Positions 1,252 to 38,012 of a DNA stretch of 64,000 nt are shown in pieces. The stretch is from IMG/VR virus record IMGVR_UViG_3300043028_000007, positions 3,899 through 67,898 of that record; one strand, 5' to 3'. Within the stretch, counting starts at the first letter, position 1. Each line of letters opens with the position of its first letter. A program made the position numbers and the translations under genes. The DNA comes from a virus. The notes under the pieces were generated by a model. That model searched no databases, had not been told where the DNA came from, and saw nothing but the letters and a program-made list of their open reading frames with translations.

Positions 1252-1731
1252 ATGAACACATGTGTTATCAGAAGAGATTCTTGGGATAAGTACTTTTTAA
1301 AAATGGCTTATCATGTAGCATCTAGATCTACTTGTCTAAGAAGACAAGTAGGAGCAGTTATAGTGAAAGACCGCCAAATCATATCTACAGGATATAATGG
1401 AGCTCCGTCTGGTATAATGAGTTGTATGGAATTGGGTTATTGTTATAGAGAACAAAACAATATACCTAGCGGAGAAAAGCACGAGACATGTAGTGCTGTC
1501 CACGCTGAAGCCAACGCCATTGTACAAGCAGCAAAACATGGAATATCAGTAAAAGGGAGCATTATGTACATTACACATCAGCCATGTTCTATGTGTGCTA
1601 GACTCATTGTAAATTCTGGTATAAAACACGTGTATTGGGAAGAGGGTTATCCTGATGAAAACGCTTCTAAAATATTATGCGGAGCAGGGATAATTAATGG
1701 TAAAATTGAAAAAGGAGATAATTGTGATTGA
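1252..1731 (+). CDS. dCMP deaminase (zinc-dependent CMP/dCMP deaminase family)
   Basis: Motifs RSTCLRRQVGAVIV, STGYNGAPSG, HAEANAI and PCSMCARLI. GGAG RBS. Confidence 0.95.
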   Translation: MNTCVIRRDSWDKYFLKMAYHVASRSTCLRRQVGAVIVKDRQIISTGYNGAPSGIMSCMELGYCYREQNNIPSGEKHETCSAVHAEANAIVQAAKHGISVKGSIMYITHQPCSMCARLIVNSGIKHVYWEEGYPDENASKILCGAGIINGKIEKGDNCD

Positions 1732-3653: not shown

Positions 3654-3691
3654 TTCCTTATTATTTAAATGTTATCGATGACTTGTATCAA

Positions 3692-3713
3692 TATAGTAAT
3701 ATATAGTTTAAAT
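3692..3713 (-). promoter_or_regulatory. phiKZ-type early promoter
   Basis: Minus strand ATTTAAACTATATATTACTATA. Confidence 0.7.
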
Positions 3714-3771
3714 AGTATTGGAAATATGAGAATCTTATAACAACCAATGCCATAAATTTAGGAGAGGTATT

Positions 3772-4806
3772 ATGAAAAATATATTATGGTTTCTTATATC
3801 GGCTTTATTCCTTAGCTTAGCAGTTTCTGTTCTAGCGAATGGGTATGATAAATACAATGTAGCTTATTATGAGGCAGGAGAATTTGGTGTATATACTGAG
3901 ACATGGGAAGGCACTAAAAGACAACTAGATGATATGGGCCTATTAGGTAAATTAGATGTAAAGTATTACGAATCACCTGGTTGGGACAAAGACGATAAAG
4001 TACATGAGGTTATAGCTAAAAAACTAATGAACGATAAGGACTTAGACCTTATAATCGGTATGGGCACTAAAGCAGTAGATGTTTTATTAAAGAATAATAA
4101 CAACAAAACTCCTATTATAGGCATGGCTTTGTCAGATGCTCTTAAATCAGGTTTCATTAAAAATGTTTCTGATACAGGAATAGATAATTTTACTACTAGA
4201 TATTTTCCTAAAAGATGGTTAATGTTAGCCGATACTTTCTATAATTTAACTAAGTTTAAGAACATAGGTCTATTGTTTGCTAATACACCCGAAGGTCATG
4301 TATATGCTAATTATAAACAATGGACAAATATATCTGATAAATATGGATTTAAAGTATCTGTTAGATATATGTCTGAAGAAGAAACATATGAAGAAGTTAA
4401 ACGAGGATTATTGGATTTAATAAATATCGATAAAATAGATGCTTTTTATATATCAGCCATATTGCCATTTGATTTTCGAGAAGATGAAGCCTGCTCTTTA
4501 CTCAAACTATTGGCTGATAATAAGATACAAGCTTTCAGTAGAGATGGCTTACCTCATATTGAGAAAGGAGCTTTAATAGGATTAACCGGCACAGATTGGA
4601 ATAGCGTTGGTAAATTCCATGCTAGACAAATAAAAGAAATTCTGATAGATAAAAAGAAACCAAGAGAAGTAAACTTCATCTATAATAACAGATTTACTTT
4701 AGCTATAAATTTAAAGACTTTAAAATATATAGGATTCGATGGAATTAACCTAGGACACTTTCATTTGTTTGAGCGTGTTTTTACTGATGTCTGTTGGGAG
4801 GAATAA
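3772..4806 (+). CDS. Secreted/periplasmic ABC-type substrate-binding-like protein (ABC_sub_bind family)
   Basis: Signal peptide (MKNILWFLISALFLSLAVSVLA). Motifs AYYEAG, DLDLIIGMGT, TPIIGMALSDALKSG, DAFYI, EKGALIG and LAINLKTLKYIG. Confidence 0.8.
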   Translation: MKNILWFLISALFLSLAVSVLANGYDKYNVAYYEAGEFGVYTETWEGTKRQLDDMGLLGKLDVKYYESPGWDKDDKVHEVIAKKLMNDKDLDLIIGMGTKAVDVLLKNNNNKTPIIGMALSDALKSGFIKNVSDTGIDNFTTRYFPKRWLMLADTFYNLTKFKNIGLLFANTPEGHVYANYKQWTNISDKYGFKVSVRYMSEEETYEEVKRGLLDLINIDKIDAFYISAILPFDFREDEACSLLKLLADNKIQAFSRDGLPHIEKGALIGLTGTDWNSVGKFHARQIKEILIDKKKPREVNFIYNNRFTLAINLKTLKYIGFDGINLGHFHLFERVFTDVCWEE

Positions 4807-5234
4807 TGAGCGATGCGTTTGATAACTTAAATATGGGATCTGAGGAAATAGCCAATTCTTGTGGAGCTGGATTACGTTATATTTTTGAAAGAGGTGCTCT
4901 CTTAGAAAGAATAAGTAGATTAGAAACTAGTCTCAACATGATCAATGAAGAAGTTAAGAACATTACCCAATCTAATCCCACTAAGGAATTAGAGTATCTG
5001 GAAAAAAGATTAAATAAATTAGAAGTATTATTAGATAAGCTATCAGATGAACTCAGTAAGTTTTCTAATATAAAAGAAGAAATCGATACATTGAAAAAGA
5101 GTGAACGAGAAACTAATAAAAATATGATAAAACAAGGAGTCAAGTTAGGATTAATAATGTTTGTAATTATGTCTATTTTGACAGGCTCCATAGGTATGTT
5201 GTTTAATGTCTTAAGTAAAAAATTAGGAGGCTAA
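4806..5234 (+). CDS. Coiled-coil protein with C-terminal transmembrane helix (XhlA/holin-like architecture)
   Basis: Heptad-rich body then LGLIMFVIMSILTGSIGMLF. Likely ATG at 4806 overlapping the upstream stop (the track starts at TTG 4794). Confidence 0.65.
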   Translation: MSDAFDNLNMGSEEIANSCGAGLRYIFERGALLERISRLETSLNMINEEVKNITQSNPTKELEYLEKRLNKLEVLLDKLSDELSKFSNIKEEIDTLKKSERETNKNMIKQGVKLGLIMFVIMSILTGSIGMLFNVLSKKLGG

Positions 5235-5239
5235 TACTA

Positions 5240-6634
5240 ATGCGGACCAAAATATTCTTTGATAGAATAGTAGAAGCTTTAGGAGACCTCATATATAAAA
5301 CCATATATGAAAATCATTTAAATTGGTTAGTCTCCTTACTTACTACTATATCTTTATCTACTATGATATTTTTCTTATGGGAAATGTTCTTTAGGAGTAC
5401 TTTTAAAATCTTTATAAACACACATTTCTATTATACATACATTAACATATATACATTGATGTTTGGTTCTCTTGTACTCAAATGGACATTCTTTGTAGCT
5501 ATAGGCTTATCCGTATTACATATAGTCTTCTTTTTTAAACTAAGAGGAAATAAAGATCTGTTTAATAAAGACCGAGCTAATCTTCTTGAAAAGATCGAAA
5601 AACTTGAAGCTACTAATAAGAAAACTGGTAAAGAACTACTGAGACATTACAATGCAGCTATATATGAAAATAATGTTAATAAGATATTGTTATCACATAC
5701 GCCTATACCAATACTTATAGTCAATGATGAAAGACAGATAATAAATTGTAATAGTGCTGCTGAAGTATTTCTTAGTTATGATAAAGAAGAACTTACAACT
5801 AATTTTAAAATAGAGAAATTAGTTACTAATATACACGATAGGGAATTGTTAATCGATAAATATAAGAATCGTAAAAAATACCCTTATCACGAATTAGCTA
5901 AATACGATATTAAATTACACGATAAATTTAATAATATCAAATTCACTACTATAGGTATAAAACCTATCATAGGTTCTGAAAAGACTATGATAACTATATT
6001 AGATAAAACATATATAACTAAACTAGAAAAAGAATTAGAACTACAAGCTAACTTATCTACAGAAATAATCGAACACAGTAACCGATATATATGGAAGAAA
6101 GATACCTTTGGTAGGTATACTTTCTGTGATAGTAAGTTCGGTGAAGACTACTTTGGATTACTATCTAGTGGCTCTATGTTAAGTGGTTGTTCACAATGTA
6201 TTGGGTTTACGGAAAAAGAACTAATATCTTTTTATATCAACAGTACTAATCGTAAACATAGTTTCATAGATAGAGGGATAGATACAGATAAAATAACTAT
6301 GGATAATGACAGTAGTTATCGTTATATCGAAATGGGACAAATCGACAATAAGTTATTTATAATAGATATAGTTAAAAAACCACAAAAAAATAAAAATGGA
6401 GATATAGTAGGTGTAGTTGCTTCTGCTACTAATAGAACAAATGAAGGCATGGCTGTCATAGAAGAAATATCTAGAGGAACAAAAATAGGTACAATAAAAC
6501 ATATTTATGATGAGGATTATTTATATATTTATTCAGTCGATTATACTGAAACTTATGAACCGATTATTATCAGTGATTTGGATGAGTTTGAAATGCCCAA
6601 AATAGTAACAAAAATAAAAGACGTTGATTATTGA
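5240..6634 (+). CDS. Membrane-anchored tandem PAS-domain protein with no recognisable output domain
   Basis: Two N-terminal hydrophobic helices, then a coiled coil. PAS1: ILLSHTPIPILIVNDERQIINCNSAAEVFLSYDKEEL...ITILDKT. PAS2/PAC-like: IIEHSNRYIWKKDTFGRYTFC...KKPQKNKNGDIVGVVASATNRT. Confidence 0.75.
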   Translation: MRTKIFFDRIVEALGDLIYKTIYENHLNWLVSLLTTISLSTMIFFLWEMFFRSTFKIFINTHFYYTYINIYTLMFGSLVLKWTFFVAIGLSVLHIVFFFKLRGNKDLFNKDRANLLEKIEKLEATNKKTGKELLRHYNAAIYENNVNKILLSHTPIPILIVNDERQIINCNSAAEVFLSYDKEELTTNFKIEKLVTNIHDRELLIDKYKNRKKYPYHELAKYDIKLHDKFNNIKFTTIGIKPIIGSEKTMITILDKTYITKLEKELELQANLSTEIIEHSNRYIWKKDTFGRYTFCDSKFGEDYFGLLSSGSMLSGCSQCIGFTEKELISFYINSTNRKHSFIDRGIDTDKITMDNDSSYRYIEMGQIDNKLFIIDIVKKPQKNKNGDIVGVVASATNRTNEGMAVIEEISRGTKIGTIKHIYDEDYLYIYSVDYTETYEPIIISDLDEFEMPKIVTKIKDVDY

Positions 6635-6643
6635 TTAAAAAAT

Positions 6644-6676
6644 AATAAGATGGGAGGCAGAATCTCCCATCTTATT
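6644..6676. terminator. Bidirectional intrinsic terminator
   Basis: 13-bp perfect stem AATAAGATGGGAG/CTCCCATCTTATT between convergent genes. Confidence 0.8.
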
Positions 6677-7256
6677 ATGCTGCATCTACCATTACTAATA
6701 CTTCTTTATCTATTATTACTAATACTTCTTTTTCATAATGATAGATTTTTCTATCGTCTTTATTTTTGCGGCAATATTTTCTTAAGAGACTTTCATCTCT
6801 TAAGTTATTTGTAGGAATCGAGAATTCACAAGATTCCATATTAGAAATATGGATATAGTCCATGCTTCTAACATCTACATATGCCCAGAAATATCTAGGC
6901 ATTATGTTTCTGATGATTCTCTTTACAGAAGAATCATATTCTCCTGATTCTTCTATAGAAGTTTCTTCATCAGAAACTCTTAGAATATACATACCTTTAG
7001 AAGTATGTACCCTAAGAATTACAATATCACTATTGATAGTAAGATTATAATAAGGAGTGATTCCGCCACCCCAACTGTAACATATATTACCAAACGAATC
7101 TATATGTCTGGTAATATATATGTTTGTGCGAAGCTCAGGATTTACTTTTTCCCAAGCTTCGATGACAGTAAGGTTCTCAATCTTATGAATAAGATCAAGA
7201 ACGAATTTATCTTTGAACCCAGAAGGGTTCTTTTTAATGAATATACTTTCTCTCAT
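6675..7256 (-). CDS. Hypothetical protein (early gene)
   Basis: 193-aa ORF with GGAGG RBS, downstream of the early promoter-like motif at 7301-7318. Confidence 0.75.
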   Translation of the reverse strand: MRESIFIKKNPSGFKDKFVLDLIHKIENLTVIEAWEKVNPELRTNIYITRHIDSFGNICYSWGGGITPYYNLTINSDIVILRVHTSKGMYILRVSDEETSIEESGEYDSSVKRIIRNIMPRYFWAYVDVRSMDYIHISNMESCEFSIPTNNLRDESLLRKYCRKNKDDRKIYHYEKEVLVIIDKEVLVMVDAA

Positions 7257-32042: not shown

Positions 32043-34265
32043 CTAAATCTTTATTCTTAGTATCTGTGGATAAGCTTTAACGGTCTTAAATGAATAAGAT
32101 CCTAATTTCTGACTATTTAAATTCAATGTACCCGAAGGTAGGTCATTTAAATCAGAAATATCTATCCACAAATACCGTATATTATTACCACGCACAAATT
32201 CATCGGGAATATTGATACATTCCAATCTTTTATTATCTACTATACCTATTATCCTATTGGTCCCATTCATATACAATGGGATATATTCGGTATCTTTATC
32301 TATCCTATGTATCTTTATTTTATTTTTATTCGTTGTATTACCAACTAAGATATATTTAGGATAATTCTTATTGTTAGGAATATTACCAACGATATTTAGT
32401 TTATTTCCTATACTACCTTTTCTTTTAATAGGCAGAGTTTTTGATATCTTTTGTTTCTTTAATACTCCATCTGTATATAAAGTAATCACATCGTCTCGAT
32501 AATGATATTCGGTGTACATATTATCCGTATCTACCCAACCTTCAATAGCGACTGAACAATCTTTAGTATGAGTAACGGTAAACATTATTTGGTCTTTCTT
32601 ATATACCAGACCTTTTCCTTTAACAGCCATTGGCAATAGGCTATCGGCTTCAACACCGGGTTGTATCCTAGGATAATTGACTGATAAATCATTAATACCA
32701 ATCTTATCAGGATATATATGAATAGTTATATCCGTATTCGGAAAACCTTTACATATATGAACTAGATCATCTAATGATGTAAACTGGATTACTCCGGAAT
32801 TATTGACAGATATATAGCCTATGTAATTTACATATTCGATAGGGTCTTTGGGTTCATATTTATTTTTGATAGCTTTAGCAGATTCCATAATCTCCATATC
32901 GATAGTATCGTAACTTTTAAGTAAGCTATCTAGTTCTTCTTGAGTATTCTTTATTTCTTCTAACAGGTCTTCTTTTGAAGATTTGGATAATGTCGATAAT
33001 TTAGCATTGTAAAGAATACTACATTGGTTGTAAGTAAGGCCAAATTCAGTATCCATAATACTGTAACCATCGTCTATGGTATTCTTACGTATTATCTCAA
33101 TGATACGATCCATCTTATCGTGTACTAACAAAATAACATTGAGCTTATCCAGTTTCTTAACTAAAGACACTTGTTTATGTTTCTTCTGACTGAGGATAGC
33201 TCTTTTTCTTTCTCTATACCACTTAACTAATATGGTGTATGGAGTATAGTTAGTTACTACACCATCATTACTATAATTGAGTACCGGCGATACTTTTCCA
33301 GTAAAGCTTATCATAGATTTGATCTTTATCATAGCATCGAATATATCACAGGTCCTTTTAAAATATAATACGATATGTGTTCTCATGGATTCTTCACTAT
33401 GATCACCTATCTTTACTACATTTTGGTTGGCCCATGATCCTTTGGTCCTTATGTTATCTAATAATGTCTTATTGACATTAGCTACTGATACATCGTATGG
33501 TAAATTATAAATATGTAAGGCATATTTTTCTATTTCCATAATACCATCGTTTATTATCGGATGTGTAAAATTACCTTTTGCATATTCTTCTTCCAGCTTA
33601 CTGTAATTTCTTACATAGGTCTTAGTTGGAAAAATAGGTCTAAGATACTTTACCATTCGTTTTAAAGGATATCGTTTCTTTTCTAACTGATACTTAGCAT
33701 AGTCAATTACTAAGTCAGCTATACCATTTAAGGAATATGCTGTAGTATATGAACCAAACCCGTATCCAACTGTAATAGAACCTATGAGTAAGGCAGTAGG
33801 TAATTTAGGTATAAAGTATTTCGGTTCCAATAGACTCAAATTCTCGCTTATAGTCTTGTACAGAACTTTGTCATCTATACCGTTAATATACAAATCTTTA
33901 CATATGTCAGAGAGCTTATACTCTATATATCTTAAAGCACTAGCTTCTGTTCCACTATAATCGCCATAGTCGCCTTTCATGTCGAACAATGGATATCTGT
34001 TATAAAAAGGTTGTGTTTGTCTAACTATAGCACTGTATGTACTAGCATCGCCAAATGGATGATATTTCATAGTATCAGCCAAAAAGCTTGATCCTGAAAT
34101 ATAATCATTGATGCCTCTATTTGCCCATATAGCTCTTCTATGGACTTTCTTTAACCCATCGACTGGATTGGGCATATGGTTATCCATAACAGCTAATCCA
34201 TGAACTTTGCTATTATCTTTTATTATATCTGAAGCGGTATTTTTCGTAATATGTAATCCGTCCAT
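32043..34265 (-). CDS. gyrA: Type IIA topoisomerase subunit A (GyrA/ParC-like)
   Basis: Motifs DGLKKVHRRAIW, KYHPFGDAS.Y, catalytic ASALRYIE and PKLPTALLIG...GYG. Confidence 0.92.
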   Translation of the reverse strand: MDGLHITKNTASDIIKDNSKVHGLAVMDNHMPNPVDGLKKVHRRAIWANRGINDYISGSSFLADTMKYHPFGDASTYSAIVRQTQPFYNRYPLFDMKGDYGDYSGTEASALRYIEYKLSDICKDLYINGIDDKVLYKTISENLSLLEPKYFIPKLPTALLIGSITVGYGFGSYTTAYSLNGIADLVIDYAKYQLEKKRYPLKRMVKYLRPIFPTKTYVRNYSKLEEEYAKGNFTHPIINDGIMEIEKYALHIYNLPYDVSVANVNKTLLDNIRTKGSWANQNVVKIGDHSEESMRTHIVLYFKRTCDIFDAMIKIKSMISFTGKVSPVLNYSNDGVVTNYTPYTILVKWYRERKRAILSQKKHKQVSLVKKLDKLNVILLVHDKMDRIIEIIRKNTIDDGYSIMDTEFGLTYNQCSILYNAKLSTLSKSSKEDLLEEIKNTQEELDSLLKSYDTIDMEIMESAKAIKNKYEPKDPIEYVNYIGYISVNNSGVIQFTSLDDLVHICKGFPNTDITIHIYPDKIGINDLSVNYPRIQPGVEADSLLPMAVKGKGLVYKKDQIMFTVTHTKDCSVAIEGWVDTDNMYTEYHYRDDVITLYTDGVLKKQKISKTLPIKRKGSIGNKLNIVGNIPNNKNYPKYILVGNTTNKNKIKIHRIDKDTEYIPLYMNGTNRIIGIVDNKRLECINIPDEFVRGNNIRYLWIDISDLNDLPSGTLNLNSQKLGSYSFKTVKAYPQILRIKI

Positions 34266-34363
34266 TCGTTATATTCTGCCTCCTTATATGAGCGTCCATT
34301 TTAGTCATATAGTATGAGAATTTCTAGTTTAAATATACCTACCTTGGTAAACGATAAAAATAA

Positions 34364-34392
34364 ATATACTCATCCGTAAGGGATGAGTATAT
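34364..34392. terminator. Hairpin (terminator-like) between the 125-aa gene and gyrA
   Basis: 12-bp stem ATATACTCATCC/GGATGAGTATAT. Confidence 0.65.
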
Positions 34393-34397
34393 CTACT

Positions 34398-34775
34398 TTA
34401 AAATTTAATACAATAATCTTCGCTTACTTCAGGTTCATTCTTTTCATTGTAAGTGACTATTTTAAAATTCACTTCTTCTACCTTCCAGCCGAGTATGGTA
34501 AATATATAATTAACTCTTTTAGAAGTTAGTGTTTTAGATAGGATAGTACTTTTAAGATTGCCCCAATTCTCATTTATCTTATTTATACTCAGTCCTATTC
34601 TATTATTTTCCTTATAAAGAGCCTGATATAAGTCACCATAAGTAACTTTTCTCTTTACAAAGATAGTACGAAGCAATTTAGTTAAACTATCGCTTACTTC
34701 GTCTATGTCTTCCTTAGTGAAGATGAGCTTCTTTGTTGCCATACCACTTACTATATGGTTAGCTACTTTAATCAT
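34398..34775 (-). CDS. Small basic hypothetical protein (resembles a conserved jumbo-phage family)
   Basis: 125 aa with GGAG RBS. Motif WGNLK..I....LT.K....IF.IL. Confidence 0.65.
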   Translation of the reverse strand: MIKVANHIVSGMATKKLIFTKEDIDEVSDSLTKLLRTIFVKRKVTYGDLYQALYKENNRIGLSINKINENWGNLKSTILSKTLTSKRVNYIFTILGWKVEEVNFKIVTYNEKNEPEVSEDYCIKF

Positions 34776-34797
34776 GTACCAAGTCTCCTTTTATGTC

Positions 34798-35547
34798 CTA
34801 TACATATTGTTCCAGTATTTGTTTAATGGAAAGTAAATACCAATCCCGTAAATGATAAAACTCTATCCCATAATTCTGATCAAGGGAATTGTTTTTGAAG
34901 AAGTTATATAGTATGTCTATAAACAAAACGCACGCTAATATTGGGCAATTCTGTACAAATGCGTCAGGATTCAAATTAACCAAACAGCACTTTATCATGG
35001 ATTTCATATTACCCAATGTTGAGTCTAATGTACCTATGATAGTCTTATAAGAATAGATATGGTTTCTTAAGGCCTTATTGGTAATATATTCTTTTTTCAT
35101 AAATGAATATAAGAATATATATACATATCCCAGTTTTCGATTTGATTGAAGATTAGTTATTTTAGATATATTAGTAAGTATACGTTCAGCCATAACGGCC
35201 ATATACATCTTATTTTTATTATGACCATATTTGTAACCAGCATAAGCATATACCCAACTAGGTACGTTTTCTAACAAATTATATTCTACTATGGTTTCCC
35301 AAGCCTTTAGTTCAAGATAAGGAGCATATTGTTTGTTTTTAACTCCTATAAAACAGAGCATAAGATCATGTATAAGTTCTTTACCAGATATATTATCGAA
35401 TACTATGTTTTCAAATGCTTTAAATTCGATACTTTCCAAGTAATTTAACATCGGTCGTTGATCTATAAAGTACTTCTGTGGATGGTCTCTATAAATATCC
35501 TTCGTAATAACCGTTTCCTGCATTTTATTCAAGTTATATAAAGACAT
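34798..35547 (-). CDS. Hypothetical protein
   Basis: 249-aa ORF with GGAG RBS directly after gyrB. Confidence 0.75.
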   Translation of the reverse strand: MSLYNLNKMQETVITKDIYRDHPQKYFIDQRPMLNYLESIEFKAFENIVFDNISGKELIHDLMLCFIGVKNKQYAPYLELKAWETIVEYNLLENVPSWVYAYAGYKYGHNKNKMYMAVMAERILTNISKITNLQSNRKLGYVYIFLYSFMKKEYITNKALRNHIYSYKTIIGTLDSTLGNMKSMIKCCLVNLNPDAFVQNCPILACVLFIDILYNFFKNNSLDQNYGIEFYHLRDWYLLSIKQILEQYV

Positions 35548-35558
35548 ATATATTCTCC

Positions 35559-38012
35559 TTAACCTATTCTAGAAAACAATAGTTCTTTTCTATAAGTACT
35601 ATCATTACCCATGTAGTTTATCAGTTTTTCAGCATCGCCGACAGAAGTTATTTTAACGACTACCCTATGTTCTGGATCCATACATAACCTACCTCTATCC
35701 TTAGCTGGCAAAGATCCGAGTCCTTTATATCTTTCTATTTTAAAGAAATGATTTTCCAAAGTTTTAAACAGATAAAATATCTGGATGAAAGACATGGGAT
35801 GATCTTTGTATGTATCGGTGAATTTGGTTGTAACTAATAAACTATAGTGTCTGAAAGCTATAGCCTTTAAAAAGGGCAACAATTCTTTACTTATAGCTTC
35901 CTTAAGTCCAATGAGAGATATTATTATATCTTCTCTTCCTAGGGTCATGGAAAGTACTTTTGTATTGGGATTATATTCGACTGTATTACCAAAGACTTCT
36001 CTAGCTTTATCTAAATTGAAATTTTTAAGATCTTTAGTATCTTCCAATACGGGTATAAGTCTTTCTAGTATTAATGGGTTCACGTAATGTTCTTCCGCTA
36101 TATCGTTCATTAGATTCCCTATATAGGAAATTATTCTAGCTACTTCTATGAAATATTTCTTATCCAATAAACTAACTTCAGAAGTTAGGTGGTTACTTAT
36201 CTTTATATCGAATGCTTTATAATAGACATATTCAGCTAAGGCATTTAGTATTTCATCAGCTGTTTTCTTATAAATAACCGATCTATTTTTACTACCACCT
36301 TTGAGCACAAGACCATATAGTGGAGAAGTTGCTATATGTAATATACCTGATTCAACAAAAGCTGGATTAAACACCCAAAAGTTGGATATAACTATATTGG
36401 CTATATGAGCACCTGCACTATCTGCATCGACCATGATCATAACCTTACCATATCTAAGATTGCTAAAGTCAGTCTGGTTAGGTGTAAGTCCCAATATCTT
36501 AATAATGTCACCAAAGATATTATTGTTCTTTAATTTTTCTCTTGCTTCTGGAAGCTTATCTTTAGTGGTTACTACATTAACAGGAACACCACGCATATTG
36601 TAAAGTGCTTGATATTTACTATTACGGCCTTCTGTTCCACCGGCACTGTTTCCTTCAGACAGAAACAACTCTGCCTGAGCTCTGTCGTCAGTAGAACAGT
36701 CTTTGAAGTTCTTAGGGTTATTTAAATCCAATATAAGTCTTTTAGCATCTTTGACTTCTATATCTTTATTGCTGAATGCCATGAACTTACTATTTAAATC
36801 AGGTTCTATGATTTCGAATAATTCTTCAAACTGATCATCGAAACCAGATAGCTGTTCTTCTATTAGAGTACTGAAGGTTTTCTTGAACTTCTTGTCCTTT
36901 ATACCAGTCTTATGTAAGTTCTTATATTCGATGTCATTGTATCTTATGTGTGCTAAATAGTACAATGGTAAATGATACTTTTCAACAAAGAATTTATACT
37001 TAGGCTTTTCTTTAATGAAAGGAGCTAGCTTATCTTTTATTAGTTTATTAAGAACTTCTAGGTGAGTACTATCGTTATCTTTGACTATTACATTATTAGC
37101 TATCGAGACATGGTTTCCCTGATTCTCATATTTAATAGCATAGATATTTATATCGTAAGCTATTAATTCATCTTCTTTCATAAGTATAGAAGGAACTATT
37201 GGATCTTGTTGTAAAGTCATTTTCCATCGCATAGGTCTTAGGATATTGAAATAGTTCTTAATAAATCTATCTTTATCTTTATTCCTAGTTGAACTATCGA
37301 AGATTACATTAGCGGAATAAGATCTATCTCTAAGTAGTTCTAAAGATTCTTTAGCTCCGCTTTTCCAAAATGATTCATCGATACCTGATTTATATTCTTT
37401 TATAACGATGTTGTACTTTACAAACAAACACCATATGCTAAACAATTCTATGAACAATACTTTGCCATCTATAAGGAATTTGTCTATGTCCTCAAATATT
37501 ATTTTATCAGGCTCAAGTACTATAAAACTACCAGTCTTATTATCTGAAGAATTATCTAAAGATATAACAACATTTTCTCCATCACCATCTTCTATCAATA
37601 TACTACTTACCTTATTATCTCTGGAAGTAATAGCTTTAAATCTTTTAGACAAAGCCGCGGCTGCTTTCGCACCTACACCAAATGATCCAGAACTGAACTT
37701 ATAACTTTCTGTATCGAATTTACCGGAAGTATTAAGAACTGTAAAAGTTTCCTCTAACTTTTCTATTGGAATACCTCTACCATTGTCAGATATCATTACC
37801 TGATAGCTATTGTTCTTAGCGTCATTAAATAACACTATCTCCAAAAGACCATTCTTTGTTAATACTAATTCATCGTTGCTGTTATCTATGATTTCTTTTA
37901 TCATATGGAACTGCCCAGGAACTTCTTTATCGACGATATAGTTATTAGGTCTCAGTCTCACTGGCTCAAGTTTAGTAGCTGTTCTAATACTAGACTTATC
38001 ATAATTTGCCAT
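35559..38012 (-). CDS. gyrB: Type IIA topoisomerase subunit B (GyrB/ParE-like)
   Basis: GHKL motifs EIIDNSNDE, DNGRGIP and SGKF...SGSFGVGA. TOPRIM motifs LFLSEGNSA, RGVPVNV, MVDADSAGAHI and RYKGLG. Confidence 0.93.
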   Translation of the reverse strand: MANYDKSSIRTATKLEPVRLRPNNYIVDKEVPGQFHMIKEIIDNSNDELVLTKNGLLEIVLFNDAKNNSYQVMISDNGRGIPIEKLEETFTVLNTSGKFDTESYKFSSGSFGVGAKAAAALSKRFKAITSRDNKVSSILIEDGDGENVVISLDNSSDNKTGSFIVLEPDKIIFEDIDKFLIDGKVLFIELFSIWCLFVKYNIVIKEYKSGIDESFWKSGAKESLELLRDRSYSANVIFDSSTRNKDKDRFIKNYFNILRPMRWKMTLQQDPIVPSILMKEDELIAYDINIYAIKYENQGNHVSIANNVIVKDNDSTHLEVLNKLIKDKLAPFIKEKPKYKFFVEKYHLPLYYLAHIRYNDIEYKNLHKTGIKDKKFKKTFSTLIEEQLSGFDDQFEELFEIIEPDLNSKFMAFSNKDIEVKDAKRLILDLNNPKNFKDCSTDDRAQAELFLSEGNSAGGTEGRNSKYQALYNMRGVPVNVVTTKDKLPEAREKLKNNNIFGDIIKILGLTPNQTDFSNLRYGKVMIMVDADSAGAHIANIVISNFWVFNPAFVESGILHIATSPLYGLVLKGGSKNRSVIYKKTADEILNALAEYVYYKAFDIKISNHLTSEVSLLDKKYFIEVARIISYIGNLMNDIAEEHYVNPLILERLIPVLEDTKDLKNFNLDKAREVFGNTVEYNPNTKVLSMTLGREDIIISLIGLKEAISKELLPFLKAIAFRHYSLLVTTKFTDTYKDHPMSFIQIFYLFKTLENHFFKIERYKGLGSLPAKDRGRLCMDPEHRVVVKITSVGDAEKLINYMGNDSTYRKELLFSRIG

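Follow-up and report, generated by a model that had tools for sequence, protein, structure and literature searches.

Here we examine a 64,000-nucleotide stretch of virus DNA (the window, with positions counted from its first letter), which corresponds to positions 3,899 to 67,898 of the IMG/VR virus record IMGVR_UViG_3300043028_000007. Between minus-strand genes of the window, three closely packed plus-strand open reading frames (ORFs) at positions 3772-6634 encode a secreted solute-binding protein (SBP), a small coiled-coil membrane protein and a membrane-anchored tandem PAS protein, and comparison with related contigs identifies this trio as an evidently conserved unit under purifying selection. 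Each part is of a known kind, namely, a PF04392 SBP, PAS domains, and an XhlA-like membrane protein. For the combination of an SBP with an anchored, output-less tandem PAS protein and a small membrane partner in a phage, no described counterpart was found in the searched literature. We tentatively favor the interpretation of the trio as a phage-encoded, membrane-associated sensory unit that would signal by protein contact. Its conserved core is the pair of the membrane protein and the PAS protein, to which the SBP is a lineage-specific addition.

The first gene (P0001; 3772-4806, plus strand) codes for a 344-aa protein of the ABC_sub_bind family (PF04392) with a predicted Sec-type signal peptide and without a lipobox. 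The second gene (P0002; 4806-5234, plus strand) yields a 142-aa protein if translated from the ATG at 4806 or a 146-aa protein from an alternative TTG at 4794; the ATG is probably the actual start because one of the related contigs, L003, has the same gene overlap and because the protein database call is 142 aa. The third gene (P0003; 5240-6634, plus strand) encodes the membrane-anchored tandem PAS protein of 464 aa, without an output domain. In all three phages compared (that of the window and those of contigs L002 and L003), the stop codon of the SBP gene overlaps the start of the middle gene (in the window, the ATG at 4806) by 1 nt. In the window, the PAS gene begins 5 nt past the end of the middle gene. 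Upstream, in the intergenic region between divergent genes (3654-3771, plus strand), a Shine-Dalgarno-like AGGAG motif can be read about 8 nt before the ATG of the SBP gene; in a scan of the region upstream of the trio, sigma-70-type promoter sites were no commoner than in shuffles. By their layout, the three genes look co-transcribed and translationally coupled, and the ORFs and overlaps bear out the tight coupling among minus-strand genes that an earlier interpretation, made from the letters of this DNA alone (the sequence-only reading), had described. The same reading had taken the flanking minus-strand genes for early ones, a label that is not supported, as the right flank reaches genes for structural proteins of the virion (phrog_3430, DUF7193, and a phiKZ gp28-like gene). 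Its terminator stands in part: a 16-bp hairpin (6642-6678, not assigned to either strand; dG -22.4 kcal/mol, z -5.0) lies between the trio and the convergent minus-strand gene at 6675-7256, but the only clean T-run serves the minus-strand side. The hairpin is probably a bidirectional terminator.

Orthologues of all three genes, in the same order and with the same flanks, are present in L002, a 47-kb contig in which the synteny with the window continues downstream into the DUF7193 gene. There, the identities are 57% for the SBP (P0006), 28% for the middle protein, and 47% for the PAS protein. In L003, a 4.5-kb contig with the PAS gene running off its end, the corresponding values are 68% (P0005), 52%, and 75%. 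Thus, the trio stays together outside the window, in L002 and, as far as the contig reaches, in L003, which was one of the checks suggested in the sequence-only reading. Nei-Gojobori dN/dS estimates against L003 are 0.165 for the SBP, 0.108 for the middle protein, and 0.140 for the PAS protein, and dS against L002 is saturated or very high. These values, 0.11-0.17 overall, do not fit the decaying host fragments that the same reading had named as a way in which its proposal could fail.

The PAS protein starts with a hairpin of two transmembrane (TM) segments (5321-5542, plus strand; aa 28-101), with hydrophobic peaks at about residues 38 and 88. The segment of aa 66-101 is the best conserved part of the protein, with 69% identity to the L002 orthologue vs 47% overall. 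Beyond TM2, a basic cluster is followed by a predicted long helix (aa 105-153) and then by two PAS domains delineated by both profile and fold, PAS1 (5696-6007, plus strand; aa ~153-256) and PAS2 (6083-6436, plus strand; aa ~282-399). The protein ends with an extension (6437-6631, plus strand) that consists of a helix (aa 400-416), a beta-hairpin (aa 419-433), and a disordered tail (aa 434-464). Taken alone, P0003 scores under the PAS cut-off (19.6 vs 22.6 bits), and a word-index search with this protein returned only P0003 itself. A profile built from the three orthologues matches 1543 proteins at E<=1e-3, with positions ~145-270 and ~260-402 matched independently, and the homologue P0035 exceeds the Pfam PAS cut-off. 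An AlphaFold2 (AF2) model of full-length P0003 from 3 sequences was unusable (pLDDT 37.5), and residues 140-464 were modeled instead, with a 50-sequence alignment; this model (pLDDT 90.8, pTM 0.77) comprises PAS1, a linker helix, and PAS2. In a Foldseek search, the best solved match was the tandem PAS of DosP (1.4e-12), followed by the Brucella LOV-PAS-HK protein, NifL, MmoS, and FixL, and the Atlas fold matches of the model have TM-scores of 0.6-0.68. The profile search and the predicted fold agree on the two PAS domains of what had been read from the sequence as a two-TM, coiled-coil, two-PAS protein.

Alignments of the model to histidine kinases in the AlphaFold DB stop at model residues ~278-283, which correspond to aa ~417-422. 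Given this end point of the kinase alignments, the modeled helix of aa 400-416 appears to be equivalent to the signaling helix that, in kinases, enters the DHp domain. For aa 400-464, there is no Pfam, NCBIfam, or PDB sequence match and no known output domain; the description of this protein as output-less, which an output domain in the last ~70 aa would have contradicted, holds in both the sequence and the fold searches. PAS2 represents a distinct PAS subfamily with the signature W-x-K-D / F-C-D / T-D / R-x-I-E-x-G / K-x-P and a conserved set of mostly polar residues (W285, K287, D288, C296, H340, D350, R361, E364, K379, and P381). Direct reading of the sequence revealed neither a conserved heme-type His in PAS1 nor a LOV motif (NCRFLQ-type Cys) in either PAS domain. 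We also considered a periplasmic location of the PAS domains, as in LuxQ, and rejected it given the two TM peaks with a positive cluster after TM2, the TM-less homologues (P0036 and the short forms described below) that have no signal peptide, and the conserved Cys.

The middle protein (P0002) contains one hydrophobic segment, centered at residues ~120-132 of 146, and the rest is a long helix or coiled coil. This architecture, an N-terminal coiled coil with a single C-terminal TM helix, is that of XhlA-type phage membrane proteins, and the hydropathy profile and the structural look-alikes, an XhlA cluster in the Atlas with a score of 0.90, agree with the original description of a coiled-coil protein with a C-terminal TM helix. 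The orthologues share an N-terminal S-C-x-A-G-L motif, and searches with P0002 gave no significant family match. A homologue, P0185, matches phrog_937 'hemolysin' at E 1.1e-5. Membership of P0002 among XhlA-type phage membrane proteins is plausible, not established, by these comparisons.

Outside the three contigs with the complete trio, the middle gene and the PAS gene recur as a pair. A full-length homologue of P0003, P0035 (450 aa, E 1.4e-69), has a TM region of its own and is encoded in L029, a different phage-like contig that carries Thy1 and giant fiber-like proteins, and is directly preceded there by a 115-aa member of the middle-gene family (P0184); no SBP is present. Similarly, in L032, the 340-aa P0036, which lacks TM segments, is preceded by a 144-aa member of the middle-gene family (P0185), again without an SBP. 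PAS2 together with the C-terminal extension was detected in 49 of the proteins scored, most of which, according to the alignment, end shortly past the extension. Many of these are short forms of 200-330 aa in which a coiled coil precedes PAS2; they were placed in IMG/VR and metagenome contigs, the IMG/VR scan being run with a 7-sequence PAS2 alignment. A small gene for a coiled-coil, single-pass membrane protein is located directly upstream of the short PAS gene in L033-35/L046 (66 aa), L044 (66 aa), and L045 (63 aa), and a gene of this type is located directly downstream in L043 (118 aa) and in L036 (150 aa; here, the PAS protein is a GAF-PAS-PAS form). An IMG/VR jumbo phage of 286 kb (L042:2120-3022) encodes a 300-aa PAS2-plus-extension protein that has N-terminal TM segments of its own and no separate partner. 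Altogether, about eight further phage lineages have PAS2-plus-extension proteins, either next to a partner of this type or with a TM anchor in the same chain, and several of the pairs lie within morphogenesis modules, after the portal gene.

Neither the short PAS proteins and the PAS2-plus-extension family nor most of the partners have a PHROG family match. Structural matches in BFVD include small 'PAS domain' proteins of a similar kind from uncultured Caudovirales, together with the PAS kinases that jumbo phages such as Atu_ph07 encode. The PAS protein with its small membrane partner appears to be a widespread, uncatalogued phage module. Judging from gene content, the conserved core of the trio is this coiled-coil-TM and PAS pair, with the SBP as a lineage-specific addition, an aspect that the sequence-only reading had missed.

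Several loci with PAS genes of this family show additional features. Downstream of the short PAS gene, a Mu-F-like head morphogenesis gene differs in length among contigs (L033:7661-9712 vs L034:5159-6028): it encodes 683 aa with intein-splicing and Vsr/DUF559 endonuclease domains in some contigs and 289 aa in close relatives, which looks like the presence or absence of an intein. In L036:2183-7317, part of a phage-like contig, signaling genes are densely clustered: the GAF-PAS-PAS protein, its coiled-coil TM neighbor, another small PAS protein, an acetyltransferase, and a protein of 199 aa with a guanylate/adenylate cyclase domain are encoded beside an SLT lytic transglycosylase gene. In L051:2294-3061, the match to the PAS2 family is broken into ORFs of 97 and 85 aa under translation table 11, which could be due to a frameshift, to misassembly, or to the use of a different genetic code.

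The SBP (P0001) matches the PF04392 profile at E 2.7e-8 (33.9 bits, cut-off 25.9) across both lobes, with residues 44-319 aligned to profile positions 16-276 of 293. The profile of the SBP family matches the solved TrpX structure (PDB 6hni) at E 1.9e-15, and also 3lft and 3lkv; three solved members of PF04392 bind Trp, Tyr, or Phe (PMC10443332). By a simple hydropathy reading, the N-terminus consists of a K, a hydrophobic core centered on residues 10-16, and V-L-A before N-G, and no lipobox Cys is present in the N-terminal sequence. From these features, we infer a free periplasmic protein in a diderm host. The match above the curated cut-off and the predicted signal peptide support the description of this gene product as an ABC_sub_bind-like protein with a signal peptide, as it had been read at first.

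In the phylogenetic tree of the SBPs, the three phage proteins group together with 100/100 support, and a long branch (1.13) leads to them. The sister group is a clade of ~350-aa proteins from metagenome-assembled genomes of Desulfobacterota (Desulfovibrionales, Desulfobacterales, and Desulfohalobiaceae) and a few Gammaproteobacteria. The cellular SBP gene is almost always preceded by a gene for a conserved 414-aa protein without a known family (P0029), within a cassette that encodes a 349-aa protein, a 750-aa MFS protein, P0029, and the SBP (L006:1086-7059, L009, L011, L004, L016, and others) and that often adjoins a dCache-HAMP-SpoIIE phosphatase gene. The 349-aa protein and the N-terminal extension of the 750-aa MFS protein share a layout of TM segment, periplasmic domain, TM segment, and coiled coil. 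A more distant clade of SBPs of 382-389 aa (L037-L041) is encoded together with a methyltransferase, an 830-aa MFS protein, and an Ala_racemase_N-type PLP protein, with no ABC permease genes. A PF04392 protein regularly linked to an MFS protein rather than to an ABC permease is, to judge from these neighborhoods, apparently unusual. No homologues of the phage middle or PAS genes were detected in the cellular SBP loci; P0029, the 349-aa protein, and the MFS N-terminus were each considered as relatives of the phage middle and PAS proteins and rejected, with no significant similarity found. Because the phage SBPs form one clade and the cellular loci lack middle and PAS homologues, it appears that the phage acquired the SBP gene alone and once, and that it was joined to a pre-existing phage pair. 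A seemingly closer relative of the phage SBPs in Desulfothermus okinawensis (L027:6001-6770; 48% identity over 97 aa) was set aside: in the draft assembly, pieces of the gene lie in three frames, either because it is a pseudogene or because of sequencing frameshifts, and its neighbors are uninformative.

The record from which the window derives is a 150-kb IMG/VR virus record with an estimated completeness of ~51% and a GC content of ~30%. Genes in the neighborhood of the trio match the phiKZ vertex protein gp28, the gp29PR domain, a phage tail tube protein, DUF7193, DUF7208, and the virion protein phrog_3430. By these matches, the replicon is an uncultured, divergent phiKZ-like jumbo phage, which comes from oil-field samples, so the trio is phage-borne, as the sequence-only reading had it. 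The phage is far removed from all sequenced ones. Searches with blastn and tblastn of the region and of the SBP and PAS proteins against 50,697 GenBank phage records gave no matches; the DUF7193 virion protein found its best tblastn matches, at ~24% identity, in Vibrio and Photobacterium jumbo phages only. Scans of IMG/VR with the alignments A1 and A2 and with a 548-aa virion protein produced no matches, and near-identical DNA is present in several oil-field metagenomes.

Within the 150-kb record, which covers only about half of the genome by the completeness estimate, ABC_tran (PF00005), BPD_transp_2 (PF02653), and GGDEF had no match, and the sole HATPase_c domain belongs to a GyrB-like gene. 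This domain search agrees with the initial impression that no permease, ATPase, histidine kinase, or GGDEF gene is near the trio, the gene families of which are represented by one copy each in the record. The GyrB-like gene (817 aa, with HATPase_c, Toprim, and the GyrB C-terminal domain) and a GyrA-like gene (740 aa) are located on the minus strand of the window at 32043-38012, with two small genes between them. About 2 kb upstream of the trio, the window also carries a dCMP/cytidine deaminase gene (1252-1731, plus strand); a dCMP deaminase gene is found near the cellular SBP in L004, too, which is probably a coincidence.

How might the three proteins act together? Under the interpretation that we tentatively favor, which we consider a possible rather than an established function, the PAS protein and the XhlA-like middle protein would form an inner-membrane complex through their coiled coils; an association is suggested because both proteins have membrane anchors and long helices and because the short forms of the PAS protein retain an N-terminal coiled coil. 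The PAS domains would read a cytoplasmic cue, such as a small ligand or the redox or energy state, and the C-terminal helix and hairpin would provide a contact surface. The PAS domains might alter the state of the membrane partner, and the most plausible effect, speculatively, would be the tuning of a late membrane event, such as lysis timing. The secreted SBP would add a periplasmic input in this phage clade, conceivably by docking on that stretch of the TM hairpin, short and strongly conserved, which faces the periplasm. The most specific version of this scheme, in which a lytic jumbo phage builds a tripartite transmembrane sensor, with the SBP reporting an extracellular or periplasmic metabolite and the PAS switch reading the cytoplasm and gating the XhlA-like protein to time lysis or another late membrane event by the chemical surroundings, is unlikely to be right in full.

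Several observations count against such a sensory unit. Neither PAS domain revealed the signature of a cofactor or ligand, and the periplasmic part of P0003 is a very short, aromatic-rich loop without a docking domain of the kind present in known SBP-dependent sensors. The association with the SBP is known from three related contigs only. Between the partners of 142 aa and those of 63-66 aa, the hhalign probability of 34% does not demonstrate homology, and what they have in common is architecture and adjacency. The link of P0002 to XhlA is weak, with matches to PF10779 (E 0.36, below the threshold), phrog_1193 (E 0.045), and the phrog_689 holin (E 0.04), and no holin, endolysin, or spanin was recognized within ~10 kb of the trio, a region in which many neighbors are unannotated. 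The control of lysis timing through the middle gene, which the sequence-only reading had put forward, is accordingly in a weak position: the phrog_937 match of P0185 speaks for it, but the recognized neighbors do not.

Among the alternatives, the one that survives best is that the locus combines two functions, with the SBP being an auxiliary metabolic gene whose product would couple to a host transporter, as cyanophage PstS does to the PstCA of its host, and raise the uptake of aromatic amino acids or similar solutes in the infected cell, and the pair being an unrelated neighboring module. We regard this as doubtful, if well worth keeping in view. It would account for the pair without an SBP in L029, L032, and several other lineages and for the single, separate acquisition of the SBP seen in the tree. 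The alignment of phage with cellular SBPs has many invariant polar columns, suggesting that the pocket is intact, and there are precedents for a role in uptake, both in cyanophage PstS (10.1101/2021.07.20.453049) and in TrpX-type PF04392 proteins (PMC9382623). However, the 1-nt overlap of the SBP and middle genes is retained in all three phages, the long branch separates the phage SBPs from their cellular relatives, and the nearest cellular SBPs are encoded not beside ABC permeases but with large MFS proteins and sensor-like membrane coiled-coil proteins.

Another possibility is that the PAS protein is a decoy or jammer that heterodimerizes with the PAS domains or coiled coils of host kinases, cyclases, or chemoreceptors at the membrane and so blocks or rewires host signaling; the hijacking or jamming of host two-component signaling was the main idea of the sequence-only reading. 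The tandem PAS and its signaling helix can be superposed on the sensor parts found in histidine kinases, in EAL and GGDEF proteins, and in sigma-54 activators; PAS2 has the subfamily signature of PAS domains inside large bacterial sensors; and the membrane anchor would position the protein beside host sensors. On the other hand, no close host homologue that could be the source of a mimic was found, the nearest relatives being other phage proteins, and the conserved phage-encoded partner speaks for a self-contained module. On balance, this explanation seems to us rather improbable. That the genes are decaying or functionless fragments of host origin, for example, of a truncated sensor kinase and a binding protein, has next to no credence: the SBP is clearly of cellular origin and the PAS protein ends where kinases continue, but the frames are intact in three diverged phages, which at 47-75% amino-acid identity are not one population, with saturated or high dS and low dN/dS, the C-terminal extension is retained throughout a large family of proteins that end with it, and the cellular SBP loci lack PAS or middle homologues. 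What is left of our expectation goes to some explanation outside these four.

The sensory unit that we favor can be set against several known systems. Membrane sensors that depend on an SBP, such as LuxP-LuxQ, TorT-TorS, NspS-MbaA, and ChvE-VirA, dock the SBP with a domain of considerable size in the periplasm and have a kinase or GGDEF/EAL domain as their output. As in the LuxPQ/TorTS type, the SBP gene of the trio adjoins the gene for a PAS-containing membrane sensor, and the locus has no transporter of its own. Unlike that type, the trio has only a short periplasmic loop, cytoplasmic PAS domains, and no output domain, and it resides in a jumbo phage genome of the lytic type. P0003 resembles the short LOV and stand-alone PAS proteins, such as PpSB1-LOV, which signal by way of flanking helices and in which a C-terminal helix comes after the PAS core and there is no enzymatic effector; because the effector is lacking in both, output through protein contacts would be expected in both. 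P0003 differs from short LOV proteins in that it has no readable LOV flavin-Cys motif and possesses tandem PAS domains, a two-TM anchor, an extra conserved beta-hairpin, and a dedicated gene for a membrane partner. The middle protein has the same build as the XhlA type (PF10779; PHROG 'hemolysin' families) of lysis cassettes and differs from it by its family-specific S-C-x-A-G-L motif and by the lack of a recognized holin or endolysin neighbor.

With respect to phage-encoded sensors, a parallel is VqmA(Phage) of the vibriophage VP882, a temperate, plasmid-like phage in which this soluble protein serves as a transcription factor of the PAS-HTH type (PMC8284805). Like VqmA, which lets the phage read a chemical cue, P0003 is a phage-encoded PAS protein, but it is membrane-bound, lacks a DNA-binding domain, and shows no sequence relation to VqmA. 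For the SBP, the counterpart is cyanophage PstS, which becomes part of the uptake system of its host (bioRxiv 10.1101/2021.07.20.453049). The two are alike in being periplasmic binding proteins that are carried by phages and originated in cells, and the SBP of the window belongs to the same Pfam family as TrpX. In contrast to PstS and TrpX, it is not accompanied by cognate transporter genes, is translationally coupled to the genes for a membrane protein and a PAS protein, and has as its nearest cellular clade one that pairs with MFS proteins.

The known modes of sensing by phages are mostly cytoplasmic and transcriptional, as in the arbitrium system, the VqmA-type receptors, and the SOS-responsive repressors. 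Against this background, a conserved, output-less membrane PAS module with a dedicated partner in many unrelated phages points to an unstudied route of signaling by protein contact. The secreted SBP offers a direct handle on such a route, as ligands can be sought in a screen and then supplied externally. Should the partner indeed be XhlA-like, the pair would, for the first time, place a long-unexplained class of lysis-associated proteins in a regulatory context. If, furthermore, the tripartite sensor proves true, the pair would be a widespread, undescribed phage signaling system, and the version with the SBP would be the first with an outside-facing input.

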